From: Candidatus Heimdallarchaeum aukensis
Lineage (GTDB): Archaea > Asgardarchaeota > Heimdallarchaeia > Heimdallarchaeales > Heimdallarchaeaceae
Length of the DNA stretch: 64,000 nucleotides
Direction: 5' to 3'
NCBI GenBank assembly: GCA_021513695.1
Contig: CP084166.1
Location: 2,048,001 to 2,112,000, forward strand
Made by a program: the position numbers and the translations under genes. Positions 8,665 through 62,987 of the stretch are shown here, one piece after another. Below the pieces are notes generated by a model that saw nothing but the letters and a program-made list of their open reading frames with translations, was not told where the DNA came from and searched no databases. How positions within the stretch are numbered: position 1 is the stretch's first letter; every line of letters starts with the position of its first letter.

Positions 8665-8768
8665 TGGTGCGTCAACCGGGAATTGAACCCGGGCCGTCGA
8701 ATCTCTTCTTGAGGCTTCTAGACGCCATATAATGGAAGTCCGACGTACTACCACTATACTATTGACGC
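8665..8768 (-). tRNA. tRNA, probably Gly(TCC), with about 30-nt intron at canonical 37/38 position and encoded CCA
   Basis: Reverse complement folds as acceptor GCGTCAA/TTGACGC, T-arm CCGGG-TTCAATT-CCCGG, anticodon stem TCGGA/TTCGA (two G-U pairs) with loop CTTCCA|intron|A, then discriminator A and CCA. Anticodon assignment is tentative. Confidence 0.6.
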
Positions 8769-18200: not shown

Positions 18201-18277
18201 GGCGGGGTAGTCTAGCTTGGTATGGCCCCTGGTTTGGGACCAGGTGATCAGGAGTTCAAGTCTCCTCTCCGCCACCA
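18201..18277 (+). tRNA. tRNA-Pro(TGG), CCA encoded
   Basis: Acceptor GGCGGGG/CTCCGCC, anticodon arm CCTGG-TTTGGGA-CCAGG, T-arm AGGAG-TTCAAGT-CTCCT, discriminator A, CCA. Confidence 0.85.
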
Positions 18278-19658: not shown

Positions 19659-19797
19659 TGGTGCCCCGACCGGGAACCTCAAAAAAAATGCCTCAACATT
19701 TTTCTTTTTGAACCCGGGTCTGCGGATATTCCTGCCACATCCGCGAACTTTAGCATGTGAAAGTCCGCAATGATTGGCCGAGCTACACCATCGGGGC
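19659..19797 (-). tRNA. tRNA-Glu(TTC) with two introns (anticodon loop about 30 nt and T-loop about 31 nt), CCA encoded
   Basis: Exon sequence closely resembles archaeal tRNA-Glu (GCCCCGA-TGGTGTAGCTCGGCCAATCAT-GCGGA-CTTTCA...TCCGC-AGAC-CCGGG-TTCAA...TT-CCCGG-TCGGGGC-A-CCA). 139 nt = 77 + 2 insertions. Confidence 0.75.
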
Positions 19798-19998
19798 ATA
19801 GAGTTTTTGTCTTGTTGAAATGATAGAATTAAATTGATTTTTAATATTTTTGTTTGTCGTGTCCTCTTATTAATAATGATTTTCTTTATATTCTGTTATT
19901 ATCTTACAGAGATAAATTTAAAAAATAAATGTTAACTCGTTTCTTAATCCATATAGAAAAACTGCTCGTTTCCTACTTTGTTCATTTGCTTAAAATTT

Positions 19999-20084
19999 CG
20001 CGGGGATTGCCGAGCGGTCAAAGGCGCTGGACTTAGGATCCAGTCCTTAGTGGTTCGAGAGTTCGAATCTCTCTCCCCGCACCA
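19999..20084 (+). tRNA. tRNA-Leu(TAG), long variable arm, CCA encoded; integration target
   Basis: Acceptor GCGGGGA/TCCCCGC, anticodon arm CTGGA-CTTAGGA-TCCAG, T-arm GAGAG-TTCGAAT-CTCTC. 3' end duplicated 2.8 kb downstream. Confidence 0.85.
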
Positions 20085-20095
20085 TTTCTTCTTTT
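20057..20095. repeat. 39-bp direct repeat, copy 1 (attL-like): last 28 nt of tRNA-Leu plus 11 nt
   Basis: gagagttcgaatctctctccccgcaccatttcttctttt, identical to 22887-22925. Confidence 0.85.
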
Positions 20096-21080
20096 ATCTT
20101 TATATATTTCCTTTTCCTTTTTTCTTTATGGTTGCTTTTTCTCCTACTTTTTCTGTTATCGATTCTTTCTCTTTTCTTCACGACCCTCAATTTGTTTTTT
20201 TACTTCAGACTTTTATTGATTCTTCCCCTGACTTTTTTTCGTTTCTTTCTCTTCTTTCTTCCTCTTCTCCCTCTTCTCTTTCTTCTTTTGTAAGGGACAT
20301 TTTTTTACTTATTTCTTTTGATGATCCTTTTTCTCTTTCTTCTTCCTCTTTTCATTTTTTTGATTCTCATTTTAATTGGAAATCTTTTCTTTCCTTTTTC
20401 CTTGATTCTTTTTCTTCCCGTAAATTTTCTCTTTGCAATTTTTCTTTATTTTATGCTCATTTTTCTTTTTTGCATTTTTCTATTCCTAATTTTTTATCTG
20501 ATTTTGCATTCTTTTTTTTATCTGATTTAGATTTTAATTTTTTATCTTCTTCCTTTTTCAGTTCTTTTTTCTCTTTTGAATCTTTTTATGATTTTTTCTT
20601 TTCTTATTTTGATTCTTTTTTACCTTCCTATCGTCTCCTTATGCGTCATCGTTTTAATTCTTCTCCTAACCATTTTTTTCCTCCTTTTCTTCCATTCCTT
20701 CGTTCTGAAGAGGTTAGCTCTTATTTTAAGTCCTTTCTGTATATTTGTGGCTTTGATAAATCTGTTTTCGGTTTTGGTTCTTCTCGTGCTAAGGTTGATC
20801 CTCGTCAATTTGCTGAGTCTTTTCAAACTTCTTGGATTAAATTGCACTTTCATTTAGACAAAATGCGTTTTCCTTTTACTCTTTCTTCTACTCGTGTTCT
20901 TTCTCTTTATCATCCTGGTCGTTATGTTTCTTCTGTTAATCCAAGTAATGGTTTTGACGATCTAATTGTTTTTTCTTCCTCCTCTTCCATTCCATCCTCT
21001 CTTTCCTCTTCTCCTTCTTCTCTTTCTTCCTTTTCTTCTCCCGTTTCTCCCTGCTTTACTATTTGTGTTATTGAGCAAAA
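20096..21080 (+). other. About 1-kb polypyrimidine (C+T) tract on + strand
   Basis: Plus strand is overwhelmingly T/C with only scattered purines. Open in several frames on both strands because stop codons need purines (or T on the complement). Confidence 0.8.
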
Positions 21081-21081
21081 A

Positions 21082-22881
21082 ATGAACCATTTAGACGTTA
21101 AGCGTTTAGATAGTCCTTCTTCCTCTTCCGATTTTACGCGTTATCTCTCTTACCTTGCTAAAACCCACTTAAATCCCTTTATTCTTCTTTTACAAGCGTT
21201 TCATTATCCTGAAAAAGATAGACTTAAATTGTCCTCTCTATTGTATGATCGCTCTTTAACTTATTCTAACTCTGTTGGATTAGACTTTTTACGTAAAATC
21301 ACGAATGGTGATTTTCTATCTTCTCTTAAACTAATTGAACCTTCTTTAGATGATCAAACTATCAATAATATTCTTCGGGGTTCTATTATCCAGCACCAGC
21401 TTATTTCTTTGATTAAGTCTGGTTTTTGTTTTAAATTGGCTTTTGTTGATGGTTATTATACCGTTAAAAAGAGGTATCCTGGTGACCTGGTCTCTTCTGT
21501 TATATGTTATTATAATTGTTTAAATGGTTCTTGCGTTGAAATCCATTTTCCTTCGTCGCTATTTGAAATAAGAATAGATTCTAGGGGTCATTTTCTTGTA
21601 CCTCAGTACTCTGAATCTCAGATTTCTTCATATGCAAAGACAGAAAACGAGCTTATGGCTTATCAGGAACTCAACAATCTATTTAACACTTTACGGAGCG
21701 ATATGATTTTTAATGTAAATATTTTGTCTCTCCCTCCTTTTGAAATTGTAAAAAAAGTTAATTTATATCAAAAAAAGATTCTCTTTTTTTTACTTAATTC
21801 TAGACGAATTGCTGATTTAAGTATCTTTAACGATGGTTTTGTTAAATCTTATTTGGAAATTTTTACTTTACCAAAAACAGCTCATCGGATCAAGAGATAC
21901 TTATCCTATATACACGATTCACTTTCAATTTTTCCCTATTCGTTTTATCAGCAGTGGAATGCTCCTTTTGGCGATAGACTAAAAAACATGTTCTCTGGTT
22001 CTTTTAGTCGTGATACCCTTCTTTGTAAGCGTTTTAAAGAAAAGCTTCTTGAGTTTATTTTATCCTCTGATTATGATTTTTCCGAAATGCCTTTAGAATT
22101 TATTGAAACTAAGTTACGTCATTCACCTGATATTCAAATTTTTTTAGATTGCTATTTTAGTCAGTTTGCTCTTTATCCTGACGGTAATTTTTTACGGTTT
22201 AAACATAATAAAATTTCTTTGAAAGCTCTTGCTTTTTGGGATGAGACCAACAATCAATGGTTTTCGCTTAACAAGAAGCGTTTTTACATTTTATTGAACT
22301 TTGAAGATATTTTAGCTAATATAAGTAAGGAAGTGTCTTTTAAAGTAACAAAAAATCTTTTGCTTTTTCCTATTAAATTTAGTTTAAATAAACGCACAGG
22401 GCAGTTATCAGCTCTATTTAATACTGATTTTACTAACACTGAAGTAAACAGAATTTGGGTTGCATATCTTAAAAAATTGAAAGGAATGGATCTTTCCTTT
22501 GAGATTTTGTCCTCTTTTTCTTATGGTCAACGAAATAAGCGGAGTGGAATTGATTTATTCTATAACTGTAACCAAAAAAAGCTTTCAATATTGTTGGCAA
22601 TATTATCAGAAACTATTAAGTTGTGGAGTTTGGTTAAAGAACTTGTCCTTAACGTTGTTTATAAAAAATTAGATTCTGAAATGGATAAAATTATCTTATC
22701 TACCAAAGGAGATAAAATTGTTCTCAATGGCAAGCAATACAAAATGGTCTTACTCAATTACAATGAAAGTAATTCAAGGGTTAGGTGGTCGTTTAAACAC
22801 TACCTATTTCCTGTTGAAGGAACAATTATTGATGATTTTGTTAAAAAATGTTATTCTATTTATACTGATTTATTTTCTTAG
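21082..22881 (+). CDS. Hypothetical protein of the tRNA-Leu-inserted element (conservative start; in-frame extension to ATG 20128 would add an S/F/L-rich low-complexity N-terminus)
   Basis: Normal-complexity ORF (MNHLDVKRLDSP...) ending exactly at the right repeat. No integrase/recombinase motifs seen. Confidence 0.55.
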   Translation: MNHLDVKRLDSPSSSSDFTRYLSYLAKTHLNPFILLLQAFHYPEKDRLKLSSLLYDRSLTYSNSVGLDFLRKITNGDFLSSLKLIEPSLDDQTINNILRGSIIQHQLISLIKSGFCFKLAFVDGYYTVKKRYPGDLVSSVICYYNCLNGSCVEIHFPSSLFEIRIDSRGHFLVPQYSESQISSYAKTENELMAYQELNNLFNTLRSDMIFNVNILSLPPFEIVKKVNLYQKKILFFLLNSRRIADLSIFNDGFVKSYLEIFTLPKTAHRIKRYLSYIHDSLSIFPYSFYQQWNAPFGDRLKNMFSGSFSRDTLLCKRFKEKLLEFILSSDYDFSEMPLEFIETKLRHSPDIQIFLDCYFSQFALYPDGNFLRFKHNKISLKALAFWDETNNQWFSLNKKRFYILLNFEDILANISKEVSFKVTKNLLLFPIKFSLNKRTGQLSALFNTDFTNTEVNRIWVAYLKKLKGMDLSFEILSSFSYGQRNKRSGIDLFYNCNQKKLSILLAILSETIKLWSLVKELVLNVVYKKLDSEMDKIILSTKGDKIVLNGKQYKMVLLNYNESNSRVRWSFKHYLFPVEGTIIDDFVKKCYSIYTDLFS

Positions 22882-22886
22882 GCTTG

Positions 22887-22925
22887 GAGAGTTCGAATCT
22901 CTCTCCCCGCACCATTTCTTCTTTT
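22887..22925. repeat. 39-bp direct repeat, copy 2 (attR-like)
   Basis: Identical to tRNA-Leu 3' portion plus 11 nt. Confidence 0.85.
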
Positions 22926-22967
22926 CTTTTGTTTTCTTTTTCGTTTTGTTTCGTTTTGTTTATTTTT

Positions 22968-23009
22968 TGATAGTGATAGTGATAGTTACACCTTTTTTGA
23001 TAGTGATAG
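22968..23009. repeat. TGATAG hexamer array (3 + 2 tandem copies, each preceded by TTTTT)
   Basis: ttttttgatagtgatagtgatag ... ttttttgatagtgatag, immediately after the element right repeat. Confidence 0.8.
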
Positions 23010-23012
23010 ACT

Positions 23013-23708
23013 TTATTTTTCTCTTATTGTTCCGTAAATTCTCATATATCTTGGTTTTATTTTTTTTCTTTTGATGTATCTTTTTATTATCGTCACATCT
23101 ACTATTATTTTTACTCCTATCATTATCATCAATATTGTTTCTATTGTTCCATTGAATACCAGTAGATAAATTAGGAATTCTTCATCTCCTGCTGCATTAG
23201 CTATTGAAGCTATTACTGAAACAATTATTGAATAGAATCCGAATATTTGGTATAATATACTTCCCACTTTAATATCTGTTATTTTTTTTATTCTTGTTAG
23301 CATTAGATCTATTTTTCTGAATCCTATTGCTCTTGACGCTAGACTTATTAGAATCGCAAAGCTTCCGAAAACCACACTTCCTATAGTGAATGGTTTTAAT
23401 ATTTCTCCTATTGCATAAATCAACAAATATGTTCTTCCTTGCATTCCTTCCTTTCTGACGTGGTCTTTAAAGTATAGGTCTGCTATTCCTCCGAAGCTTA
23501 ATGCTATTGGTATTAAGCTTAGAGCTATTACTGCAGCAAAAATATAATCAAAAAACCAATTTACTGCTCTTAAGTATTGTATTGTCCTGTTCGACAGATT
23601 TATTGCTGCTGCTATTGTAAACAAAATGCTTCCCGTTATTGCTAAAAAAGAAAATTTGTTTATTTCTGTGTTAAATATTTTCTTCTGCTTTTCTTCGTTT
23701 GAGACCAT
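23013..23708 (-). CDS. Hypothetical membrane protein, paralog of 27285-27950
   Basis: 231 aa multi-TM. Shared blocks with the 27285 protein (..GFG..F...F......R.EG, basic KRK-rich C-terminal tail). Confidence 0.6.
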   Translation of the reverse strand: MVSNEEKQKKIFNTEINKFSFLAITGSILFTIAAAINLSNRTIQYLRAVNWFFDYIFAAVIALSLIPIALSFGGIADLYFKDHVRKEGMQGRTYLLIYAIGEILKPFTIGSVVFGSFAILISLASRAIGFRKIDLMLTRIKKITDIKVGSILYQIFGFYSIIVSVIASIANAAGDEEFLIYLLVFNGTIETILMIMIGVKIIVDVTIIKRYIKRKKIKPRYMRIYGTIREK

Positions 23709-23723
23709 GCTTAAACCCTTTTT

Positions 23724-24593
23724 TTATACTTCTGATGCTAAGAGAAAGTCTGCTTCCTTTGCGTTAAATGAGCTTCTCACAAACGGAGCTGAAGCTACGA
23801 ACTTAAATCCCAGCTCATAACCTATTTTTTCATATTCCTTAAAAGTATCTGGGTGAACGTATTCTTCTATTTCTAAGTTTGAGCTTGGTGGTTTCAGATA
23901 TTGTCCTATAGTTAATATGTCACAATCTACTTTTCTTAAATCCTTTAATACTTGTATTACTTCTTCTTTTGTTTCTCCTAGTCCAACCATTATTCCTGAT
24001 TTAGTTAATATTTCCTTACTATATTCTTTGACCATCTTCAGTACTTTTAATGATATTTCATAATTTGCTTGTGGTGTGACTTTTTTATATAATCTTGGTA
24101 CTACCTCTACATTGTGATTAATTATGTTTGGTTTTGCTTCTATTATTGTTTTAATGCTCTCCTCTTTTCCTTTCATGTCAGGTATAAGTAGTTCTATTAT
24201 CAAATCTTCTTTATATTCTCTTAATTTTCTTGTTATTTCGGCGAAATGTGCAGCTCCTCCATCTGGTAAATCATCTCTTGTTACTGATGTGACTACTACG
24301 TGCTCTAAATTTAGTTTTTTAGCTGCTTCAACAATATGTTTTGGTTCCATGGGATCTAGTGGTTGTGGTCTTCCTGTTGTAATATCGCAAAATTTACAAT
24401 TTCTTGTACAGACATTTCCCATCACTAGAAATGTTGCAGTTTTATTTACAAAGCATTTTCCTATATTTGGGCACATTGATTCTTCGCATACTGTATGTAG
24501 ATGCAGTTCTCTCATAAGTTTTTGAACTTGTTTTATCTCTTCCCTCTGCACCTTCCCAATTCTTAACCATTCTGGCTTTCTTACATTTGGCAT
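23724..24593 (-). CDS. lipA: Lipoyl synthase
   Basis: Radical-SAM CTRNCKFC plus N-terminal auxiliary cluster cysteines (CEESMCPNIGKC). Confidence 0.9.
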   Translation of the reverse strand: MPNVRKPEWLRIGKVQREEIKQVQKLMRELHLHTVCEESMCPNIGKCFVNKTATFLVMGNVCTRNCKFCDITTGRPQPLDPMEPKHIVEAAKKLNLEHVVVTSVTRDDLPDGGAAHFAEITRKLREYKEDLIIELLIPDMKGKEESIKTIIEAKPNIINHNVEVVPRLYKKVTPQANYEISLKVLKMVKEYSKEILTKSGIMVGLGETKEEVIQVLKDLRKVDCDILTIGQYLKPPSSNLEIEEYVHPDTFKEYEKIGYELGFKFVASAPFVRSSFNAKEADFLLASEV

Positions 24594-24617
24594 TATTACT
24601 CACTTTTCTTTATTGTT

Positions 24618-25349
24618 TTATTGTTTTTCTATTTCTCTTTCTCTTTCTTTTTTTTCTATTTTTGTCAATAAATCTCTTGGTGAAAGATCCTTAATTTCTA
24701 TGTTAAATACTTTAGTAAAATTGTTTTTAAATTTCTCATACACTTCACGCATATCAACGCTTCTATTTAGAACTTCCTCGAGTGATATGGGTATAAAATC
24801 TGTTATTCCGCATGGAATTATCATTTGAAAATGACTCATATTTGTATTTACATTCAGTGCTAATCCGTGTGATGTTATATGCTTTGATGCTCTCGCTCCG
24901 ACAGCAGCTATTTTGGATATTTGACCATTATGTTCTATCCACACTCCAGGATATTCTTCTCTTCTGAAACCTTTTATGTTGTATTCCATTATCGTTTGAA
25001 TTACTACTTCTTCCATTTTGTGAACGAACTCGGGTATAGTGATTTTCAATTGTATTAAATCTAATAAAAAGTAAGCTACTAATTGTCCTGGGCCGTGATA
25101 TGTTACTTTTCCACCTCTTCTAATTTCAACAACTTCAATTCCTTCTTTTTCCAACACCTCATCACTAACAAGAATTTCACTTCTCTTTCCTTGTTTCCCT
25201 AAAGTAAAAACTGGTGGATCATGTTGTAACAATAACAGAAAATTGTCGTATTGTCTATCTTCCTCTTTTATGTTTCTTATTTTATTCTGTATCTCTAATG
25301 CGCTTAAATAATCGATAGTATCGTATTTTATAACAAAACATTCACTCAT
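24618..25349 (-). CDS. lipB: Octanoyltransferase (lipoyl(octanoyl) transferase)
   Basis: RGGKVTYHGPGQLVAY signature of LipB. Confidence 0.85.
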   Translation of the reverse strand: MSECFVIKYDTIDYLSALEIQNKIRNIKEEDRQYDNFLLLLQHDPPVFTLGKQGKRSEILVSDEVLEKEGIEVVEIRRGGKVTYHGPGQLVAYFLLDLIQLKITIPEFVHKMEEVVIQTIMEYNIKGFRREEYPGVWIEHNGQISKIAAVGARASKHITSHGLALNVNTNMSHFQMIIPCGITDFIPISLEEVLNRSVDMREVYEKFKNNFTKVFNIEIKDLSPRDLLTKIEKKEREREIEKQ

Positions 25350-25519
25350 TAAGTTATTTTTTTCTTATTCTTTTTACAGATTTCGATTGGACGATACCCC
25401 TAATATTTGTGATTAAAACTCTCTTTCTTTTATTTTTGTCCTTTTTTAAAGAAACACTAAATTCAAAAACTTGAAAAAGGTACTAATCAACGCTCCTATG
25501 AGATAAAAAGGTGAACTCA

Positions 25520-25786
25520 ATGAGCGTAAAAGTTTACAAAATTACTGGACATTATAAGAAGGGCAAACAAAGGATAAAATTCAGCAAGTTTGTTCGTGCG
25601 TTAAATCCACAAGATGCTTTGGAAAATATTTATGCAATTATGGGTAGTAAACATCACGTAAAGAGAACTGAGATCGTTCTTACTGAAGATAGCATTCGTG
25701 AAATTACTGATCCCAATGAAATAACAGATCAGTATGTTCATACATTCACAACTGACGATAACCTAAAAATCCCAAAAAAGGCTTAG
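25520..25786 (+). CDS. rplX: 50S ribosomal protein LX (L18Ae/L20A family)
   Basis: Start moved to ATG 25520 (AGGTGA 7 nt upstream). KVYKITGHYKKGKQRIKFSKFVRALNPQDALENIYAIMGSKHHVKRTEIVL fits the archaeal LX pattern. Conserved LX-pfdA-ftsY neighbourhood. Confidence 0.75.
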   Translation: MSVKVYKITGHYKKGKQRIKFSKFVRALNPQDALENIYAIMGSKHHVKRTEIVLTEDSIREITDPNEITDQYVHTFTTDDNLKIPKKA

Positions 25787-25787
25787 T

Positions 25788-26225
25788 GTGATAAGATTGG
25801 CAAGTAATAAACCCCAAATTGGCCAGGAAGAATTAAGTAAGTTACTTTATTCTGCTCAACAACTAGAGCAACAAGCTGGTCAATATCAGAAACAGCTAGA
25901 GGTCTTTCAAAGTTATTTAGCTGATATGAATAATGCTGAAAAAGCAATGAAAGAGCTCAAGAATATCTCTGATGAAAAAAATATTCTCGTTCCAATAGGT
26001 GCAGGTAATTTCATTCATGCATCAGTAAAGAAAACAGAGAAAGTTATTTCCTCTTTAGGTGCAGGAGTACATGCAGAGATACCAATCGACCAGGCATTAG
26101 CTAACATAGAAAAAAGAAAAACTGATGTAAACAATCAAATCTCACAAGTACAGGCAAATTATAACCAAGTAATTGAGAGACTAAAAGAAATCGATTCTTT
26201 TGTTAGAATGATACAACAAGGATAA
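25788..26225 (+). CDS. pfdA: Prefoldin alpha subunit
   Basis: Coiled coil - beta hairpins (ILVPIGAGNFIHASV, VISSLGAGVHAEIP) - coiled coil; position between rplX and ftsY. Confidence 0.8.
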   Translation: MIRLASNKPQIGQEELSKLLYSAQQLEQQAGQYQKQLEVFQSYLADMNNAEKAMKELKNISDEKNILVPIGAGNFIHASVKKTEKVISSLGAGVHAEIPIDQALANIEKRKTDVNNQISQVQANYNQVIERLKEIDSFVRMIQQG

Positions 26226-26248
26226 TCTTTCTTTACGGGGGAATTTTT

Positions 26249-27163
26249 TTGTTCAAAAATATGAAAAAAAGCCTTTCTTCTCTTTTGAAGAAGATCACTA
26301 TTGCCGAACTTAACCAAAAGACTATAAAAAAGGTAATTCACCCCCTTAAGGACATACTAATACAAAATGAAGTAGCGGTGGTAACAGCTGATAAAATTTG
26401 TGAAAGTGTTTCAGATAAGTTACTAAATGTTGAGTATAAACGTATGTCTTCTCCAAAAAGCCTTATCCTAGAAGCTTTACGCTCTTCATTATTAGAAATT
26501 TTACAACCAGAAGAGACAATTGATTTATTGAGTTTAGTAGAAGAATATAAAAAGAAAAAACAGCCTTTAGTCATTGCCTTCTTTGGAATAAATGGCGTTG
26601 GTAAAACTCTTTCAATAGCTAAATTAGGCTATTACTTGAAAAAAAATGACATTTCTTCTGTTTTTGCTGCGTCAGATACCTTTAGAGCTGGAAGTATACA
26701 ACAATTGGAGCAACATGCAAAAAAAGTAGGGGTAAAAATTATTTCTCAAACATATGGTTCTGATGCTGCAGCAGTAGCTTTTGATGCAGTATCACATGCT
26801 TCAGCTAAAGGAATTGATGTAGTTCTAATTGATACGGCAGGAAGGATGGAAACAAATAAGAACTTAATGGCTGAATTACAGAAATTAGATAGAGTTGTTG
26901 AACCTGATTTGAAGATTTTTGTAGGTGATGCTTTAACAGGTAATTCTTTAGTATCTCAAGCAGAATTATTTAATAGTAAGATAGGTATTGATGCTTCAAT
27001 TATTAATAAGATGGATGCAGATGTTAAAGGAGGAGCAACAATCTCTGTTGTGCATGCTACAAGGAAACCAATTTTATTTATAGGCGTAGGACAAAAATAT
27101 AATGACTTAAAACCATTTATTCCTGAACAAATAATCAAGAATGTTCTTCCAGATAAAATTTGA
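26249..27163 (+). CDS. ftsY: Signal recognition particle receptor FtsY
   Basis: SRP GTPase NG domain: GINGVGKTLSIAKL, DTFRAGSIQQL, LIDTAGR, INKMDADVKGG. Confidence 0.9.
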   Translation: MFKNMKKSLSSLLKKITIAELNQKTIKKVIHPLKDILIQNEVAVVTADKICESVSDKLLNVEYKRMSSPKSLILEALRSSLLEILQPEETIDLLSLVEEYKKKKQPLVIAFFGINGVGKTLSIAKLGYYLKKNDISSVFAASDTFRAGSIQQLEQHAKKVGVKIISQTYGSDAAAVAFDAVSHASAKGIDVVLIDTAGRMETNKNLMAELQKLDRVVEPDLKIFVGDALTGNSLVSQAELFNSKIGIDASIINKMDADVKGGATISVVHATRKPILFIGVGQKYNDLKPFIPEQIIKNVLPDKI

Positions 27164-27284
27164 ATTGAACCTTTTCACCTTTTACACTTGGAGTTCTATA
27201 GATAACTTGATTATTCACTATCGTAATGTTTAAAGAACTGATTTTTTGTTTGAAAACTACTAACGATAAGGTTTGTGAATTAAA

Positions 27285-27950
27285 TTGGACGTTTCTCACG
27301 AAGCATTACTACCGTTAAAAATAGAATATCATTTTAAGGAAACATTCATTTGGAGCTTTTCAGGTGTAATTTTGTTATTGCTTTCTTCATTATTCAACAT
27401 CATAGACCTTTTAGTTACAAGATGGGCTTATGTCGGATGGTTCCGACAATACCTAATAAGATCAACGATGTCTATTAGCTTTCTTCCCCTTGCAATAGGT
27501 TTTGGGATGATTTTTTCTAACTTTTTTGTAGGTTTTATAAGGCGAGAAGGAGAATTAGCAAAAAATTGGCTGATTGTTTATAGTATAGCAGAAATGGTCT
27601 CGCTTTTTACATTAAGTACAATAGTATTAGGTGCGTTTACTCTGCTAGCAATTATTTTCGGTAAATTGATAGCATTTATTTACTTAGACAGAGTTTTTTT
27701 GAAACTTAAAAAAAATGATGAGGTAAAGATAAATTTTAGTTTAATTTATCCGCTTTTTGGCTCCTACAGGATAGTAGTAGCTATAGTTGTAGGAATAGCA
27801 GCAAATGTAAGAGATTATGAAACAGAGCTATATTTGATAGCTGTAAATGCAACACTAGAAGCAATTTTTACCTTTATTATAGGAATAAAGTTGTTAATAG
27901 ACCTACTTAAAATTCGTTCTTATATAAATAGTAAAAGAAAGAAAAAATGA
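27285..27950 (+). CDS. Hypothetical membrane protein, paralog of 23013-23708
   Basis: 221 aa multi-TM, same block order and basic C-tail as the 23013 protein. Confidence 0.6.
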   Translation: MDVSHEALLPLKIEYHFKETFIWSFSGVILLLLSSLFNIIDLLVTRWAYVGWFRQYLIRSTMSISFLPLAIGFGMIFSNFFVGFIRREGELAKNWLIVYSIAEMVSLFTLSTIVLGAFTLLAIIFGKLIAFIYLDRVFLKLKKNDEVKINFSLIYPLFGSYRIVVAIVVGIAANVRDYETELYLIAVNATLEAIFTFIIGIKLLIDLLKIRSYINSKRKKK

Positions 27951-27967
27951 AAAATAAAATCTTTGAA

Positions 27968-28936
27968 TCACTCAAATACCTTTTTCACAGGTTCAAAGAT
28001 TTTTGCTAATTCGGTAGCAATAACTTTCTTTAAATCTAGAGGATGAAGATTTCCCTCAACAAAGGTTTTTTCTAATTCTTCATAATTATTGAAAGAAATA
28101 TCTCCGCCAAATTTTTCGGGTCTTTCAACAGTTAATGATTTAATGTTCGGAAAAATAATCAATTTTGCAATCTGAAGAACAGGATTGTCTTCAACGATTT
28201 TAGCAGGACAATATGCCTTCTTAAGTTTGCGTTGAATATCCTCCTTGGAATCTATGACAGATATCATCGATTCTGGGATTGAAGAAGACATCTTTGATCC
28301 TGGGCCCATGAGGGAAGAAATAAGAGGAGTGTGAATACATACGGGAGGTTTTAACTTTAATTCACTAGGGAAAACTTCTCTAGCTAACATGTGAATCTTT
28401 CTTTGCTCCATTCCTCCTTGTGCAGCGTCAAGATCAAGATATTTAATATCTAATACTTGCATAAGTGGATAAATCATCTGAGATACGGTAGCATTTTCAA
28501 TATCTCGAGCAATTTCTTGCATAGATCGTAAACCACGGTTAATAGTTACACGCAAAGCTAGACGGTGTAAGTCTTGAATGTATTCCTTGTCATATTGAAA
28601 CTCGCTACCAAGAACGATTTCAGGATTTTTAAGGCCTAAGGCACGCATAGCTTTTTCCCAGAGAACGCAATTTTCACTTATTTCCTCTTCAGTACCTTTT
28701 TTGTTCAAAAGTGCATGAACGTCAGCTAGTAAAATCTTAATATGAAAACCGGCACTTTCAAGATCTTTTAACTTCATTACAGTAACTGCATGACCAAGAT
28801 GAACAGGACCACTAGGTTCGTAGCCAGTATAAATGTTAGGTGAATCTTTAGTCTCTAAAAGCTCTTTTAATTCCTGTTCAGTAACAATTTCAGTAGTATT
28901 ATACTTAATAAGATCAATTTTTTTTGCAGTGTCCAT
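27968..28936 (-). CDS. tyrS: Tyrosyl-tRNA synthetase, archaeal type
   Basis: HIGH (HLGH) and KMSKS (KMSSS) motifs. Long colinear similarity to M. jannaschii TyrRS (YTGYEPSGPVHLGH, GGMEQRKIHMLARE, RPEKFGGD). Confidence 0.88.
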   Translation of the reverse strand: MDTAKKIDLIKYNTTEIVTEQELKELLETKDSPNIYTGYEPSGPVHLGHAVTVMKLKDLESAGFHIKILLADVHALLNKKGTEEEISENCVLWEKAMRALGLKNPEIVLGSEFQYDKEYIQDLHRLALRVTINRGLRSMQEIARDIENATVSQMIYPLMQVLDIKYLDLDAAQGGMEQRKIHMLAREVFPSELKLKPPVCIHTPLISSLMGPGSKMSSSIPESMISVIDSKEDIQRKLKKAYCPAKIVEDNPVLQIAKLIIFPNIKSLTVERPEKFGGDISFNNYEELEKTFVEGNLHPLDLKKVIATELAKIFEPVKKVFE

Positions 28937-29279
28937 TTAAATCAACAGTTAAAGTGGGTTAAAAACCATTTTACTAAAAATAATAAATACTTGTTGTTTC
29001 TGAGGAGAAAAAGGAAGAGAATTAGAACGAATAGTTCAATAAACTATTTTGATTTACAAATTAGCATCCTGTTTATTCACTTGGACATTAATAACTTTTC
29101 ATTTAATTGATAGTAAACTGGGCGTAGTTAAATATTGATTAGCTTAATTTTTGTAAGACAACTTTGCTCTCAAGGATAGTTAGAAAAAAACCATCTAAAG
29201 AAGAAAAAAAGAATAAAAGCTATTTTTATCTGAAAAAGATTTTTAACAGAAAAAATCAGTATACTACATAGGTGATTAA

Positions 29280-29513
29280 ATGGCAACAGCTTTTATATTA
29301 ATAAATAGTGAAATAGGAGAAGAAAAATCTGTTCTCGAACAACTGCTAGGGATGCCAAATGTGAAAGAAGCTCATGTAGTTTATGGTGTATATGACCTAA
29401 TAGCTAAAATTGAATCGGAAACAATGGATTCTTTAAAAAAGATTGTAACTGATAACTTAAGAGTATTAGAAAATGTTCGCTCAACAATGACTATGATTTG
29501 TGTAGAAAAATAA
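29280..29513 (+). CDS. Stand-alone Lrp/AsnC ligand-binding (RAM) domain protein
   Basis: 77 aa, AFILINSEIGEE...VKEAHVVYGVYDLIAKIESETMDSL, typical RAM fold sequence. Confidence 0.65.
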   Translation: MATAFILINSEIGEEKSVLEQLLGMPNVKEAHVVYGVYDLIAKIESETMDSLKKIVTDNLRVLENVRSTMTMICVEK

Positions 29514-29617
29514 CTAAGATAACAATAATTAGTTAATAAATAACAAAAAAAAAAGAAATTTGTCTCTTTTTTTCCTTTTTTCTTTTTCCCCATCTACTAC
29601 TTTTTGAAATAATTTTT

Positions 29618-30325
29618 TTATAGGTTGACATTTTGTTCTTCTTCAAAGTTATAAAGTGAAGCTAAAACGTGAGAAATAACAGAAAAAAGCTCTAATCCAT
29701 GAGGATAAATTGATAATCGATAATCAACAAATTTAGAGTCAATATTAAGGTGTCCATGGGAAAATCCACCAAAAATGAGCAGAGGATTTGAACAACGAGA
29801 AGAAAGAAGATAAGCATATTCACGAGAAGGTAAGACATCTCCCTTTTGAGAAAATTCAACAATAAGGTCATGTTTTTCACGAGCAGAAATTAAGAATTGA
29901 GTTAAAGATTGAGGATGAAGAGTGAGTAAAGGCTCATCAGAAAGAGGAGGAACACGGCCTTCCTTGAAAAGTTGAATCATAAGCCCCTTAAAACGATCTA
30001 AATTTTTAGGAAGACGAATAGAAGGATGGAATTCTATGATTAGATCATTAATGGTATGAATAAAGACACGAAGACGGCGATCTTGAGAAAGAAGAGAACC
30101 AAAACAGGCAAGAAGAGCTAAATGTGGAATATCAGGACGACCACGCTTGGATAAATTAGGTAAATTAGACATAAAACGAGAATGATAATTGGAATCAAGA
30201 ATAATATCACTAGGTTTTTTCTTTATCTTGCGAAAAAAGTTACGGACGGGTAAATTGGATAAAAGCTCTGAAGGAAAAGTTTCCAGAGAAGAATCAGCAA
30301 CAAGGATGGTATAAACATGGGGCAT
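29618..30325 (-). CDS. nep1: Ribosome biogenesis SPOUT methyltransferase Nep1/Emg1
   Basis: ILDSNYH ... RGRPDIPHLALL ... IHT ... RLPKN..RF.G ... GGFSHG, colinear with archaeal Nep1. Confidence 0.82.
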   Translation of the reverse strand: MPHVYTILVADSSLETFPSELLSNLPVRNFFRKIKKKPSDIILDSNYHSRFMSNLPNLSKRGRPDIPHLALLACFGSLLSQDRRLRVFIHTINDLIIEFHPSIRLPKNLDRFKGLMIQLFKEGRVPPLSDEPLLTLHPQSLTQFLISAREKHDLIVEFSQKGDVLPSREYAYLLSSRCSNPLLIFGGFSHGHLNIDSKFVDYRLSIYPHGLELFSVISHVLASLYNFEEEQNVNL

Positions 30326-30469
30326 AATTTGGCATGCGCAACAAACGTAATTAATTTTTCTGATACGAGGATAAATTGGAAGGAAAAGAAGAAGGGAAAA
30401 AAGAAGAAAAAAATAAGCGAAAAAACAACTTTTTAATGGGAAAAAAAAACAGTAATTAGGAATATAAAC

Positions 30470-31516
30470 ATGCCAAGTATTGTAAAATATGAAAATGGAA
30501 TAAGAGTGATAGATACAGAAAGAAAAACTAGTCTAATAGCTGATCCAACAACAATAGCAACAGCAAAAAAGAATACAGCAGCAATAATAACACATGCACA
30601 TACAGATCACGCAATAGCCTTCCCAAATGAAGGAATAAAAGTATACGCAACAAAAATAGCAAGTGAATTGTTTTCAACATTAACAGGAAAAAAAAGCAAA
30701 AATACATTTTTCATGGAATATAATAAAGAAATAAAAATTAAAGAAATGAATATAGAAGCACTGCCAGCAGGACACTTGCTAGGAGCAGCACAAATTCTGT
30801 TTAAAACAGAAAAAAAGAACATACTGTATACAGGAGATATAAGCTTTGGAAAAATGAAAACAGTAAAAGAAGCAAAAGAACCAGAAGAAAAAATAGACAT
30901 ACTGATAACAGAAGCAACATACGGAAAACCAGACCTATACTTCGAACCAAGAGAAACAGTAAAAATGAAAATATTCAACTGGATAGTAGAAAAAATAAAA
31001 GAAAATAACTTGGCAGTAATAAATGTGGGAAATCTGGGGCCCGCACAAGAAATAATAGCTTATCTAAATGAAATGCTAGAAATAGATATCTATTGCAACA
31101 AAAAAACAAGTAGAATAAATGAAGTGTACAAAAAAAACGGAATAAAACTAAAATACAAAGAAATAGAAGAAATAGAAGAAAAAATAGACCCAAAAAATAG
31201 CCTGATACTGTTATCAAGAGGAGAAAAAAAAATACCAGAAAAAATAATAAAAGAAAAAATAAAAGTGAAAAGAGCAATAGTAACAGGACAGGCAGCAAGA
31301 TTTAATTATACAAGTTTCGAAAAAGCTTTTCCGTTCTCGATGCACGCAAATACAAAAGAAATAGAAGAATACGCTAAAAAAATAAAACCAAAGAAAATAT
31401 ATACATTATATGGATTTGAAAGTGAATTGGCAGCTTATCTAAGAAAAAAAATAAATGTGGATGCTAGGCCATTAAAAATAGCAAATGAAAAATTACCAAT
31501 AGAGGAGTTCTTTTAA
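30470..31516 (+). CDS. Metallo-beta-lactamase-fold hydrolase (possibly beta-CASP-like, RNA-metabolising)
   Basis: HxHxDH motif (ITHAHTDHA), AGHLLGAAQI, TYG motif. 348 aa. Confidence 0.55.
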   Translation: MPSIVKYENGIRVIDTERKTSLIADPTTIATAKKNTAAIITHAHTDHAIAFPNEGIKVYATKIASELFSTLTGKKSKNTFFMEYNKEIKIKEMNIEALPAGHLLGAAQILFKTEKKNILYTGDISFGKMKTVKEAKEPEEKIDILITEATYGKPDLYFEPRETVKMKIFNWIVEKIKENNLAVINVGNLGPAQEIIAYLNEMLEIDIYCNKKTSRINEVYKKNGIKLKYKEIEEIEEKIDPKNSLILLSRGEKKIPEKIIKEKIKVKRAIVTGQAARFNYTSFEKAFPFSMHANTKEIEEYAKKIKPKKIYTLYGFESELAAYLRKKINVDARPLKIANEKLPIEEFF

Positions 31517-31607
31517 AGAATATAAATCTAAGAAAGGAGAAAAAGAGACCCAAAAAGAAAAATTTAAGAAAGAAAGAGAAAGAGTAAAACGAAAAAAAGT
31601 CAAGACA

Positions 31608-31733
31608 GGGGCATTAGCTCAGCTTGGTTTAGAGCATCCGGCTCATAATTTGCGTCCTAGAAACAGTCTAATTCATTAAGAACGCAAAAGAGCGACCGGA
31701 TGGTCATCGGTTCAAATCCGATATGCCCCACCA
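31608..31733 (+). tRNA. tRNA with CAT anticodon (elongator Met or Ile2) carrying about 49-nt intron at 37/38, CCA encoded
   Basis: Acceptor GGGGCAT/ATGCCCC, D-arm GCTC-AGCTTGGTTTA-GAGC, anticodon stem TCCGG, loop CTCATA|intron|A, T-arm ATCGG-TTCAAAT-CCGAT. Lacks the initiator GGG/CCC anticodon-stem signature. Confidence 0.8.
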
Positions 31734-31896
31734 GCTCTTTTGATATAGTTTATCGTTTTTCTTCAGTGCAAGAAAAAGGCTATTGGAAAATTTTTTTATT
31801 ATATTCTTATTTTCCGTTTTTACACTTTTTCTCTTTCTTTGCTTTAACGATAAATCTATAAATTGTTTTCTTTAATTTATTTATTGTCTAATATAG

Positions 31897-32835
31897 GTGA
31901 TTGAACTGGATGATAAATTTCAGAAAATAGTTGATGATATCCGAGCTCTTCGTATTCAAGGAGCGACCAATATTGCTATTGAGGGCGTTAAGGCTTTCTC
32001 TTCTTTAGCTGAGCGAATAGATTTTTCTTCTCTCCCTGATTATTTTGAACATCTTAAGAAAGCTAGTATTATTTTATCTACTGCTAGAGATACTGAACCT
32101 GCTTTACGTAATGGTTTACACTTTATTCTTTACGAGTTAGAGCATCAAGCTAGTTCTGTTTCTGAGGCTAAGGAACTTGTTTCTTCTCTTTCCCAGAAAT
32201 ACGTTGAGATGTTGAAGGATTCTAAAAGGAAAGTTATCTCTTATGGAGCTCACCGGATTCGTGATAATAGTGTTATTATGACTCATTGTCATTCTTCCTT
32301 GTCTACTGGTATAATTATTGAGGCTCACCGTCAGGGTAAAAACATTGAGGTTTTTCTTACTGAGACTCGTCCTAAGTGGCAGGGTCGTATTACTGCTAAG
32401 GAGATGGTTGATGCTGAGATTCCTACTACTATGGTTGTTGATAGTGCTATGCGTTACGTAATCAACAGACATAATGTTGATATTGTTATTACCGGTGCTG
32501 ATGCAATTACTAGCCAAGGTACTGTTATTAATAAGATTGGTACTCGTCTTTTAGCTTTGGCTGCTAGGGAAATGGATGTTCCTTTTTATACCGCTATCAA
32601 CTTGTTGAAGTATGATGCTTCCACTACTATTGGCAAGTTATCTGCGATTGAATTTCGCCCTTCTTCTGAAGTTTGGGAAGATCCTCCTAAAGGTTTGAAA
32701 ATTCTTAATCCTGCATTTGAGACAGTTTCTCGTGATCTTATTGATGGTGTAATCACTGAAGCTGGTATTTTTGCTCCTTCCTTGGTTTACATGATTATTA
32801 AAGAGCGTTATCCCTTTATGCTCTTAAACGAATGA
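31897..32835 (+). CDS. Ribose-1,5-bisphosphate isomerase (eIF-2B alpha/beta/delta family, e2b2)
   Basis: eIF-2B-like family blocks (ITHCHSS, VFLTETRP, ITGADAITSQGTVINKIGT). Immediately upstream of form III RuBisCO, as in the archaeal AMP salvage pathway. Confidence 0.8.
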   Translation: MIELDDKFQKIVDDIRALRIQGATNIAIEGVKAFSSLAERIDFSSLPDYFEHLKKASIILSTARDTEPALRNGLHFILYELEHQASSVSEAKELVSSLSQKYVEMLKDSKRKVISYGAHRIRDNSVIMTHCHSSLSTGIIIEAHRQGKNIEVFLTETRPKWQGRITAKEMVDAEIPTTMVVDSAMRYVINRHNVDIVITGADAITSQGTVINKIGTRLLALAAREMDVPFYTAINLLKYDASTTIGKLSAIEFRPSSEVWEDPPKGLKILNPAFETVSRDLIDGVITEAGIFAPSLVYMIIKERYPFMLLNE

Positions 32836-33028
32836 ATTTTATGAGCCAACTTTCTTTTCTTTCTTTTTTCTTTCTTTTTCTTCTATTGATTTTTTGCTTG
32901 ATTTTTTCTCTAATACATTTATAATTTTTTTTAATAACTAGTAAAGAGTTTTTTTAATTTTCATTTTTTCTGATTAATAAATTTGAACAAAACAGACCAT
33001 TTAAAAGTTCATTTGCTATTTTTATTTT

Positions 33029-34276
33029 ATGAATAACGCATATAAAGATTTAGTAGTTGCTCGCTATTACGTTGAGCATAAAAGCGTGGAAAAAGCCGCA
33101 GAAGAAATCTGTGATGAAGAAAGTGTTGGCACTTGGACAGACTTACGTACTACAGAGGGTAAGCCTCACGTTGCTAAACTTAGAGCTGAAGTTTTGGACA
33201 CTAAAGTTTTTTCTGAGAAGGATGGTTATCAAACTGGTGAAGTATTAATTGGCTTTAAAACTGAGACTTTTGACTTAGAAGCTGGTATTACTAGTATCCT
33301 CTCTATGCTTGCCGGAAATCTCTTTGGTCTCGGTGCTTTAAGAAACATACGTTGGTTAGACGTTGAGTTTCCTAGAGTCATTGCTGAAACTTATCCTGGT
33401 CCTAAATTTGGTATCGAAGGTGTAAGAAAGATAATAGGGACTGATAAAGGCGAATTTCCTAATCGGCCACATATCGGAACAATAGTCAAACCCAAAATGG
33501 GCTTAACCGCTCAAGAGTGGGCTGATGTAGCCTATGAAGCAGCTATAGGTGGTGTTGATTTCATCAAAGATGATGAAAATTTGTCTGATCAGTCCTTCTG
33601 CAGGTTAGAAGATCGAGTTGTAAAAGTACTTGAAAAATTAGATCAGGTTAAAGAGGAAACCGGTCGCACTGTTTTACATGCTGTAAATGTTACTGCTAAG
33701 CATGATGTTATGTGGAAAAGAATAGAAATGGCTTTAGATAACGGGGCAAAGTGTTTAATGATTGATGTAATATTAACTGGTTTCCAAGAACTTGCTCAAA
33801 TGGCTGAAGATCCAGCAGTTAATGTTCCCATACATGTTCATAGAACAATGCATGCCGCTTTCACTCGAAACCCACTTCATGGAATTTCTATGCTACCTAT
33901 TGCAAAAATAGTTCGCATGTCTGGTGGAGACCAATTGCATATTGGCTCATATGGACAAGGTAAGATGGACACTGATAAAGAACTAGAATTACAAATAAAA
34001 GATACCCTCACTCATCCAATGTATGAATTTAAGCCCACATTTCCTGTAGCTTCCGGAGGATTACATCCCGGAAAAATACCCAACCTAGTAAAATATGGCG
34101 GAAATAATATCATTATTCAAGCAGGTGGAGGTATACACGGTCATCCTGATGGAACAAGGAAAGGGGCAACAGCAATGAAGCAAGCACTAGAAGCAACATT
34201 AAAAGGTATCCCATTAGACGAGTATGCAAAAGAGCATGAAGAATTAGCCAAAGCTTTAACGAAATGGGGTAAGTAG
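33029..34276 (+). CDS. rbcL: RuBisCO large subunit, form III
   Basis: IVKPKMGL (active-site Lys), GGVDFIKDDE (carbamylated Lys), VHRTMHAAF, GGGIHGHPDG. 415 aa, no small subunit. Confidence 0.9.
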   Translation: MNNAYKDLVVARYYVEHKSVEKAAEEICDEESVGTWTDLRTTEGKPHVAKLRAEVLDTKVFSEKDGYQTGEVLIGFKTETFDLEAGITSILSMLAGNLFGLGALRNIRWLDVEFPRVIAETYPGPKFGIEGVRKIIGTDKGEFPNRPHIGTIVKPKMGLTAQEWADVAYEAAIGGVDFIKDDENLSDQSFCRLEDRVVKVLEKLDQVKEETGRTVLHAVNVTAKHDVMWKRIEMALDNGAKCLMIDVILTGFQELAQMAEDPAVNVPIHVHRTMHAAFTRNPLHGISMLPIAKIVRMSGGDQLHIGSYGQGKMDTDKELELQIKDTLTHPMYEFKPTFPVASGGLHPGKIPNLVKYGGNNIIIQAGGGIHGHPDGTRKGATAMKQALEATLKGIPLDEYAKEHEELAKALTKWGK

Positions 34277-34529
34277 TCAATTAATGCAACTTGACTTTTA
34301 CTAATTTTTTCTTTTTTTTCGTTTTTTTCTTGTTTCTTCTTATTGGCTTGAACCTTTTTTTCTAATTAGTTGATTATTGGAATAAATAAAAAGAAAATTT
34401 AAAATTAGTGGCTAATACTTAAAACAGAGGAAAGGAAAATAAACAATCTACTTTACAATACTAATCGAAAAAAGAAATATTTATATTAACAGTATAAACT
34501 TGAGGAACGAGAGAATTGGAGTAATGACA

Positions 34530-34757
34530 ATGAGTAAGACACAAAAACCAATGGACCTGTTGAATAACGCTAGAGAAAAAACAGTGTTGATAAGGCTAAG
34601 AGGAAATAGACGAATGAGAGGAACACTAAAAGCTTACGACGTGCACCTCAACCTAATACTAGAAAATGCAGAAGAAATAGGAGAGGAAGGACTTATACCT
34701 CTAGGAGACATAATACTAAGAGGAGACAATGTGATAATGGTCTCTCCAGTGATATAA
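34530..34757 (+). CDS. Sm-like archaeal protein (SmAP/LSm)
   Basis: Sm1/Sm2 motifs (VLIRLRGNRRMRGTLKAYDVHLNLIL ... IILRGDNVIMVSP). Start moved to ATG 34530 with GGAG 9 nt upstream. Confidence 0.8.
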   Translation: MSKTQKPMDLLNNAREKTVLIRLRGNRRMRGTLKAYDVHLNLILENAEEIGEEGLIPLGDIILRGDNVIMVSPVI

Positions 34758-34781
34758 TAATAAAGTAGAAAAGGGATAAAA

Positions 34782-34946
34782 ATGACTAAAGGAACACCAT
34801 CATTCGGAAGACATAATAAAGCAGCAACACACATGATCTGCAGAAGATGTGGAAAAAGATCATATCATCGAACAAAAAAAGTTTGTGCATCATGTGGATA
34901 TGGAAGAACAGCAAAAATAAGAAGTTATGCATGGCATAAACACTAA
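34782..34946 (+). CDS. rpl37e: 50S ribosomal protein L37e (C4 zinc ribbon)
   Basis: 54 aa, below the ORF-track cutoff, translated by hand: [54 protein letters not shown]. Conserved Sm-L37e adjacency. Confidence 0.85.
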
Positions 34947-35024
34947 AAGGTTAGATTTTACTAACCTAAAAAAATTTATAAAAGAAGAAAATCACAATTG
35001 CCATAAATTGTGAAAAAACATTGT

Positions 35025-35135
35025 GGGCTGGTAGTTCAGAGGAAGAACGCTTCCTTGGCATGGAAGAGGCCGGGGGTTCAATTGATTTTTCGTGCGCTGT
35101 GTGCGCCGAATCTGAAAATCCCCCCCAGTCCACCA
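35025..35135 (+). tRNA. tRNA-Ala(GGC) with about 34-nt intron inside the T-loop, CCA encoded
   Basis: Acceptor GGGCTGG/CCAGTCC with G3:U70 (Ala identity). D-arm GTTC-AGAGGAA-GAAC, anticodon arm CTTCC-TTGGCAT-GGAAG, T-stem GGGGG...CCCCC with loop TTCAA|intron|AT. Confidence 0.75.
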
Positions 35136-37038: not shown

Positions 37039-37455
37039 TTAGCTATTACTTTTTTTGTCTATCGTTAATGTTCTTCTTTCAGGGTCAATTGATATTATAT
37101 CTCCCGTGGACACTATTTTTGTGATGTCTCTATTTTCTACTTCAAAGAAAGGGATTTCTGCTAAAATTGCTCCTGCAATAACAATTGTTTCAGCGTGATT
37201 TGTTACTAAAGCTAGAGGACTAACGTTATTTACCTTTAAACTGTATATTACATAAGATCCTACTGTGGAACCCACACTTTCAGGAAAGACAAATATCTTA
37301 TCTTTAATTGATTTTCCGTGTAGTTCGCTTTGTATGTCTGCAATTATACCTTTTTTTCCATCTACTCCTCCAAGAAAAGAAATAGGTTTTTTAGAAACAA
37401 TTGCTTCTCCTCTAACACTACCTGTTACAATTACCTTTACTTCTACTTCTTTCAT
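37039..37455 (-). CDS. Aconitase X swivel-domain subunit (DUF126), small subunit of putative phosphomevalonate dehydratase
   Basis: 138 aa; 4-bp overlap with the upstream AcnX catalytic subunit. Confidence 0.65.
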   Translation of the reverse strand: MKEVEVKVIVTGSVRGEAIVSKKPISFLGGVDGKKGIIADIQSELHGKSIKDKIFVFPESVGSTVGSYVIYSLKVNNVSPLALVTNHAETIVIAGAILAEIPFFEVENRDITKIVSTGDIISIDPERRTLTIDKKSNS

Positions 37456-51375: not shown

Positions 51376-51376
51376 T

Positions 51377-54887: not shown

Positions 54888-54965
54888 TGGTGGGGTAGAC
54901 AGGATTTGAACCTGTGACATCCTCCACGTCAAGGAGGTATCATAGCCGGGCTAGATCACTACCCC
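54888..54965 (-). tRNA. tRNA-Val(GAC), no intron, CCA encoded
   Basis: Acceptor GGGGTAG/CTACCCC, anticodon arm CCTCC-TTGACGT-GGAGG, T-arm ACAGG-TTCAAAT-CCTGT. Confidence 0.8.
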
Positions 54966-62910: not shown

Positions 62911-62987
62911 TGGAGCCCCGGGGGGGACTTGAACCCCCGACCATTTGATTACAAGTCAAACGCTCTACCGAGCTAAGCCACCGAGGC
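62911..62987 (-). tRNA. tRNA-Thr(TGT), CCA encoded
   Basis: Acceptor GCCTCGG/CCGGGGC (one G-U), anticodon arm TTTGA-CTTGTAA-TCAAA, T-arm GGGGG-TTCAAGT-CCCCC, discriminator T. Confidence 0.8.

Follow-up and report, generated by a model that had tools for sequence, protein, structure and literature searches.

We analysed a 64-kb stretch of the genome of Candidatus Heimdallarchaeum aukensis, an Asgard archaeon; this whole stretch (32.7% G+C) is called the window below. Two of its transfer RNA (tRNA) genes are interrupted inside the T-loop by short insertions that very probably represent introns of the bulge-helix-bulge (BHB) type. The gene for tRNA-Glu(UUC) lies at 19659..19797 on the minus strand, encodes its CCA end and contains two such elements: 30 nucleotides (nt) in the anticodon loop (19727..19756) and 31 nt in the T-loop (19676..19706). 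Its exons, on the same strand, span 19757..19797 (exon 1, nt 1-38 of the tRNA), 19707..19726 (exon 2, nt 39-59) and 19659..19675 (exon 3, nt 60-76 including CCA); the first boundary depends on the frame of the anticodon-loop intron, which is discussed further on. The gene for tRNA-Ala(GGC), at 35025..35135 on the plus strand, has a G3:U70 pair and an encoded CCA, and is interrupted once, by a 36-nt insertion in the T-loop (35083..35118).

In their unspliced form both genes escape the usual gene finders. tRNA-Glu gives no match to the Rfam tRNA model, either at the gathering score or with E up to 10, and no ARAGORN call, intron mode included. tRNA-Ala reaches 22.8 bits with the Rfam model, under its 29-bit cut-off, and is likewise left uncalled by ARAGORN with or without intron mode. 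Once spliced in silico, they are called by ARAGORN as a clean tRNA-Glu(ttc) of 78 nt and a clean tRNA-Ala(ggc) of 75 nt. A preliminary description of the window, drawn from its letters alone, had stated that tRNA-Glu folds only with two insertions taken out. This agrees with our result: with one of them removed alone, ARAGORN is silent or makes a wrong call. The coordinates and strands that it assigned to the tRNA genes discussed here are correct as well.

BHB motifs at the T-loop junctions

We tried the canonical archaeal geometry of position 37/38 on every junction pair of each gene. In this rule, the four exon bases preceding the last two pair with the four intron bases preceding the last two, forming the central helix H; a 3-base bulge follows on each side, with helix h flanking the motif on the outside and helix h' on the inside. 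In tRNA-Glu the best motif, by a wide margin, lies at gene positions 92-122, with four of four pairs in H, five in h (the T-stem) and ten in h'. The best one of tRNA-Ala is at gene positions 59-94, with all four pairs in H and five in each of the flanking helices. The top-ranked motif of each gene thus falls exactly on the junction that restores a 7-nt T-loop. Both junctions are at nt 59/60, reading TTCAAA-intron-T in tRNA-Glu and TTCAAT-intron-T in tRNA-Ala, both motifs are strict (hBHBh'), and the T-loops after splicing are UUCAAAU and UUCAAUU, respectively.

The T-arm, like the anticodon arm, consists of a 5-bp stem and a 7-nt loop, and position 59/60 in the one corresponds exactly to 37/38 in the other. 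In both precursors the T-stem (49-53/61-65) is the outer helix, and the four intron bases preceding the last two are paired with nt 54-57 (UUCA) of the T-loop. The 5' bulge is made of nt 58-59 and the first intron base, the 3' bulge of the last two intron bases and nt 60; the inner helix is a hairpin of the intron itself. When the introns were shuffled, the central and inner helices at the junction were matched by 3 of 200,000 sequences for the T-loop intron of tRNA-Glu and by 50 of 200,000 for that of tRNA-Ala. The BHB conformer stands above the minimum free energy (MFE) of the isolated T-arm by 3.3 kcal/mol in tRNA-Glu and by 1.0 kcal/mol in tRNA-Ala, and we consider both conformers accessible to a protein-bound motif.

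Some details of the preliminary description change with these results. Its T-loop junction of tRNA-Glu, TTCAA-intron-TT, was off by one nucleotide: both the BHB register and the uninterrupted ortholog TTCAAATCCCGG place it at TTCAAA-intron-T. The insertion that it saw in the T-loop of tRNA-Ala is present, its size being 36 nt by the BHB scan instead of about 34. Where it suggested looking for a BHB or a relaxed motif at each junction, we find the strict form at both T-loop junctions and a relaxed one at the anticodon-loop intron of tRNA-Glu.

Frame of the anticodon-loop intron of tRNA-Glu

The 30-nt intron can be cut in two frames that differ by one nucleotide. Placed at 38/39 (19727..19756), it forms four of four pairs in H and five in h', a result matched by 132 of 200,000 shuffles. 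An outer helix in register is missing, however, and the 3' cut would be made inside an internal loop where a strict motif has a clean bulge, which makes the motif a relaxed one (HBh' type). Of 14 Heimdallarchaeaceae-type sequences, ten have the full central helix in this frame, with two to five pairs in h'; 90% of the cells are paired in this register, and only 49-56% if it is slid by one. The frame leaves C38 in every sequence, and C38 is also the mature base in three outgroup genes with a strict 37/38 intron (L004, L007, L031).

The alternative is the canonical position 37/38 (19728-19757), where exon 1 would end at 19758, the motif would be of the relaxed hBH type and the mature loop would read CUUUCAA. 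Several features speak for it: archaeal tRNA introns sit at 37/38 far more often than anywhere else, A38 is common, and the frame offers a clean 3-nt 3' bulge adjoining an intact 5-bp anticodon stem (seven pairs of h in the scan). However, its central helix has a C-A mismatch in 14/14 of the Heimdallarchaeaceae-type sequences, the inner helix is missing, and 70,166 of 200,000 shuffles (35%) do equally well. We regard 37/38 as possible but the weaker of the two placements, and favour 38/39 as about twice as likely. A test across homologues found conservation in this intron with almost no covariation. The copy in Heimdallarchaeum endolithica is 97% identical over 30 nt, and a homologous intron is found in the family too (alignment A2).

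The most conserved part of this intron is its core (19741-19750, minus strand), which reads AAAGTTCGCG in the window and AAGTCCGCG in relatives. It is complementary to the exon at about nt 27-35 and supports a two-hairpin fold that rivals the BHB. The core is unchanged in H. endolithica, although the exon stem there is altered.

Distribution of the introns among relatives

One comparison outside the genus is with L002, a syntenic contig of a metagenome-assembled genome (MAG) of the Heimdallarchaeaceae whose AcnX protein is 61% identical. It carries the same Pro-Glu-Leu cluster of tRNA genes, together with the genes for tRNA-Ala and tRNA-Met. In its tRNA-Glu gene the anticodon loop is interrupted by a homologous intron of 30 nt, and the T-arm, CCGGGTTCAAATCCCGG, is contiguous. 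The exons are those of the doubly spliced window gene without a single substitution, which fixes the T-loop junction at TTCAAA-intron-T.

We extended the comparison to 14 genome and 14 metagenome loci found with a pattern of the 5' exon; with L002, L003 and the window this makes 31 places and 18 distinct sequences. The anticodon-loop intron is present in all 18. The T-loop intron is present in the window only: the other 17 distinct orthologs have a contiguous TTCAAAT loop, and all nine relatives in alignment A2 show a clean gap of 31 columns in its place. In the complete genome of H. endolithica (L005, CP084167.1), tRNA-Glu stands at the same locus without the T-loop intron and is followed by a nearly identical downstream sequence. 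This distribution points to a T-loop intron specific to H. aukensis. As the 5' exon pattern has a single match in the H. endolithica genome, at the syntenic locus, the gene for tRNA-Glu(UUC) is probably single-copy and needed.

The T-loop intron of tRNA-Ala is older by this measure. Close relatives represented by contigs from ENA and JGI (L018, L024 and L025) carry it with a single substitution, and H. endolithica (L021) carries it with 8 substitutions in 36 positions, which leave the bulges, the central helix and the first three pairs of h' untouched. The H. endolithica exon carries a compensatory change from C-G to T-A at 27:43, which indicates that tRNA-Ala stayed under selection after the intron was gained. 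At the syntenic site of L002 the gene is 75 nt long and intronless. MAFFT placed the gap of this gene at the end of the alignment, and the junction was taken from the BHB register and from direct reading of the L002 gene. On these sequences, the intron is common to the genus and absent from the family-level relative L002.

A third tRNA is interrupted at the same site in other Heimdallarchaeota MAGs. There, tRNA-Pro(UGG) has a 31-nt intron at 59/60 (genes at L010 3137-3244 and L029 6555-6662, both minus strand), in two cases next to an anticodon-loop intron (genes at L014 2059-2189, minus strand, and L039 5312-5450, plus strand). Intronless versions exist: the exons of L009 are identical to those of L010, and L016 differs by one base. 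The contiguous ortholog TTCAAATCACGG fixes the junction at 59/60. Taken together, T-loop introns at 59/60 and two-intron genes are a recurring, patchy feature of the Heimdall group.

Comparing the introns with one another, we found the T-loop intron of tRNA-Glu unrelated to the rest. Those of tRNA-Ala (35083-35118) and tRNA-Pro (L010 3154-3184) have a core, TGCGCT, and an end, CTGAAAA, in common; when they are aligned, 1-2% of shuffles score higher than the real introns for some pairs and 14% do so for another, which gives a weak hint of common origin. A BLAST search of six introns against the window and 40 loci (about 430 kb) returned orthologous copies only, and hence no sign of a repeated mobile sequence.

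Other tRNA genes and the content of the window

Read with their flanks, the tRNA genes of the window number eight, for Gly, Pro, Glu, Leu, Met, Ala, Val and Thr, and all eight encode the CCA end; the preliminary description had rightly noted the encoded CCA while counting seven genes. Four genes have no intron and are detected by Rfam and ARAGORN: tRNA-Pro(UGG) (18201..18277, plus strand), tRNA-Leu(UAG) (20000..20084, plus), tRNA-Val(GAC) (54888..54965, minus) and tRNA-Thr(UGU) (62911..62987, minus). Two others have introns at the canonical position 37/38, as had been supposed for them, and here the intron mode of ARAGORN and the BHB scan agree. tRNA-Gly(UCC) (8665..8768, minus) contains 30 nt at 8703-8732, with four of four pairs in H, seven in h and one in h'. 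tRNA-Met(CAU) (31608..31733, plus) contains 47 nt at 31648-31694, in a relaxed form only (three of four pairs in H, seven each in h and h'). The Met intron occurs in H. endolithica and L024 and is absent from L002, L019 and L020, a distribution like that of the T-loop intron of tRNA-Ala. On the whole window, ARAGORN finds four tRNAs without intron mode and six with it, and the Rfam model six at the gathering score. Coupling the BHB scan to ARAGORN revealed no additional hidden tRNA across the window.

The protein adjoining tRNA-Ala, 579 amino acids (aa) long, is UJG40026.1 of the H. aukensis genome. Domain scans further identified the large subunit of RuBisCO (33029-34276, plus) and AcnX (37452-38648, minus); the latter matches an NCBI protein of H. 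aukensis with 100% identity. Elsewhere lie an acetyl-CoA-synthetase-like CoA ligase with CoA-binding, CoA-ligase and ATP-grasp domains (13435-15549, plus), an Eco57I-type methylase (10327-12684, plus) and, at 48664-53783 (minus), a molybdopterin oxidoreductase beside a NuoF-like (Complex1_51K) flavoprotein and a small open reading frame (ORF). The window also codes for an Arf-family small GTPase (61884-62822, plus) and a Roadblock/LC7 protein (12709-13146, minus), both typical eukaryote-signature proteins of Asgard archaea. An ORF of 2795 aa (254-8641, plus) has no Pfam match and stops 24 nt short of the 3' end of tRNA-Gly(UCC); it fits the "aloposon" elements, giant tandem genes at tRNA sites, described from this genome (Wu et al. 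2022, PMC8813620).

Proposed splicing and alternative explanations

We are confident that the insertions are genuine archaeal BHB introns of tRNA genes, located in H. aukensis at a non-canonical place, and that tRNA-Glu has two introns. The preliminary description had arrived at non-canonical placement and at two introns in tRNA-Glu; the BHB junctions at 59/60 and the tRNAs restored by splicing bear this out.

In the proposed pathway, the splicing endonuclease EndA would cut both bulges in the T-arm, and a ligase of the RtcB type would join the exons into the UUCAAAU loop of tRNA-Glu and the UUCAAUU loop of tRNA-Ala. tRNA-Glu would also lose the relaxed-motif intron beside its anticodon, most likely at 38/39. 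As far as is known, a strict BHB is recognised by the archaeal enzyme on whichever part of the RNA it lies. With strict motifs in the T-loop, the T-loop introns themselves do not require an enzyme of relaxed specificity; it is the anticodon-loop intron of tRNA-Glu and the intron of tRNA-Met, with its three of four central pairs, that demand one. The earlier idea that these introns predict a relaxed endonuclease would therefore hold for the latter two and not for the T-loop. We infer cutting and ligation because an (alpha-beta)2 EndA with an L1 loop is reported for Asgard archaea by Kaneta et al. 2018 (PMC5829648), and because BHB junctions at 59/60 are known from other tRNAs (Chan et al. 2011, PMC3218864).

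The presence and absence of introns in relatives suggests that the T-loop introns are evolutionarily young. The one in tRNA-Ala would have arisen in the genus Heimdallarchaeum, the one in tRNA-Glu after H. aukensis and H. endolithica split, and a separate 59/60 intron in the tRNA-Pro of other Heimdall lineages.

Several observations weigh against this interpretation. Splicing of the T-loop introns is something that we infer from sequence, and a scan of 30 ORFs of the window turned up neither an EndA gene (tRNA_int_endo domain) nor a gene for a ligase. The RNAfold MFE structure of the whole pre-tRNA-Glu favours the two-hairpin fold of the anticodon region over the BHB. The T-loop intron of tRNA-Glu is known from one species only and so is without covariation support. 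It also contains a run of eight U (19681-19688, minus strand); downstream of the eight tRNA genes of the window stand runs of T4-T7, none of them longer than this one. In archaea, oligo-T stretches stop RNA polymerase, and the U8 run may act as a premature terminator that cuts off the 3' exon. Finally, a bare BHB scan requiring four or more pairs in both h and h' yields about 125 matches per strand and is non-specific in this AT-rich window; the argument for introns therefore rests on the tRNA context.

The U8 run also enters the case for an altogether different reading, in which tRNA-Glu is a freshly disrupted copy, poorly expressed or dead, with a hairpin-forming AT-rich insertion that landed in the T-loop, and another gene elsewhere in the H. 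aukensis genome supplies tRNA-Glu(UUC). The run resembles the terminator-type T-runs found after tRNA genes, the insertion is confined to H. aukensis, and our shuffle test makes the result look too significant if hairpins are the usual form of inserted DNA. Yet T runs of at least eight occur 42 times in the window, and some of these lie in the sense strand of long ORFs. The central helix of 4 bp and the two 3-nt bulges stand in exact register with the T-stem, and not one exon base differs from L002. In the complete genome of H. endolithica a single gene, at the same locus, fits the 5' exon pattern. A dead copy is hence improbable. We give far less credence still to the idea that the insertions arose by misassembly or were left behind by the integration of mobile elements, such as duplications of attachment (att) sites or relics akin to miniature inverted-repeat transposable elements (MITEs). 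tRNA genes of the H. aukensis genome are frequent integration sites (Wu et al. 2022, PMC8813620), and the giant ORF adjoins tRNA-Gly in the window itself. But the same insertions recur in independent Logan, ENA and JGI assemblies: in the Logan assembly of SRR15988954 the tRNA-Glu gene and both its introns are identical base for base, its first four bases lying beyond the contig end, and the tRNA-Ala intron is also found in an independent ENA contig and in JGI contigs. Moreover, the window holds no duplicated tRNA fragments, further intron copies are missing from the window and the 40 loci, orthologs aside, neither insertion matches Rfam, and a group I or II intron or an insertion sequence would be much larger than 31-36 nt.

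Three specific identities were tried and rejected. For group I or II self-splicing introns, the insertions measure 30-47 nt, and no Rfam intron family was detected around tRNA-Glu and tRNA-Ala with E up to 10. Split or permuted tRNA genes do not agree with exons that are collinear within 139 nt (tRNA-Glu) and 111 nt (tRNA-Ala). For integrase att scars, a second 3' segment of tRNA-Glu, -Ala, -Gly or -Met was sought with at most 3 mismatches, and the window contains none.

Significance of the T-loop introns

In the H. aukensis genome paper, tRNAs were annotated within the RASTtk pipeline (Wu et al. 2022, PMC8813620). Since both genes are invisible to Rfam and ARAGORN when unspliced, two essential tRNAs may be absent from Heimdallarchaeum gene lists and from completeness estimates. 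What is understood of how such introns are spliced does not change. The pattern of presence and absence would document a very recent gain of introns in an Asgard lineage, in each case at the T-arm equivalent of the canonical site, and the matched alleles with and without intron may serve as a model for the mechanism of gain.

A broader proposal, to which we lean somewhat, is that Heimdallarchaeia are gaining BHB introns at 59/60 now and repeatedly: in tRNA-Ala at the level of the genus, in tRNA-Glu in H. aukensis and in tRNA-Pro in other lineages. If so, the T-loop intron of tRNA-Glu may be among the youngest archaeal tRNA introns on record, given the locus without it in the sister species, and the two alleles would make a natural before-and-after pair for the insertion of protein-spliced introns. 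Heimdallarchaeia are among the closest archaeal relatives of eukaryotes; position-independent BHB splicing would then be placed close to the eukaryotic stem, at a T-loop site that Cyanidioschyzon merolae uses as well.

Comparison with known systems

The general class is already known. Non-canonical and multiple BHB introns in the tRNA genes of crenarchaea (Thermoproteales) and thaumarchaea were reportedly described by Marck and Grosjean in 2003 and by Sugahara and co-workers in 2008, and have been reviewed (PMC4033280, PMC4090602, PMC6379350). For Asgards, the available text of Kaneta et al. 2018 (PMC5829648) surveys four members, Heimdallarchaeota AB_125 among them, maps their disrupted tRNA types, including single non-canonical and multiple introns, and connects these genes with inserts in EndA loops by which the enzyme gains broad specificity. 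The earlier suggestion that these introns are a clue to the lineage agrees well with this, the host being an Asgard archaeon. The survey shares the superphylum with our case; it is older than the Heimdallarchaeum genomes, and presence or absence at the level of species does not figure in that part of its text. What appears to be new, from the sequences compared, is the identity of the genes, the exact junctions, the confinement of one T-loop intron to H. aukensis and the repeated use of 59/60 in Heimdallarchaeia.

With the introns of crenarchaea and thaumarchaea, those described here have in common that they are short, use hBHBh' or relaxed motifs, are gained rapidly and in a lineage-specific manner, and are missed by standard finders. 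They differ in their host, a Heimdallarchaeial Asgard with 33% G+C, and in their positions: besides 37/38, only 59/60 and possibly 38/39 are used in the roughly 430 kb sampled. Unlike in Thermoproteales, there is no clear intron-to-intron similarity that would mark transposition, only the weak resemblance between tRNA-Ala and tRNA-Pro.

A eukaryote-type splicing enzyme measures from the mature tRNA body, and a cut in the T-arm is not expected of it. A BHB junction at 59/60 is found in the permuted tRNAs of Thermofilum pendens and C. merolae (Chan et al. 2011, PMC3218864), with the same T-loop position and the motif built on the T-stem. There, the 3' half lies upstream of the 5' half, whereas in H. 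aukensis the exons are collinear and the intron is an ordinary one in cis. A structural parallel is the canonical 37/38 intron, represented in the window by tRNA-Gly and tRNA-Met: in both kinds the stem has 5 bp, the central helix takes in four bases of the loop and the cut follows the sixth loop nucleotide, but it is the T-arm that is used here and not the anticodon arm.

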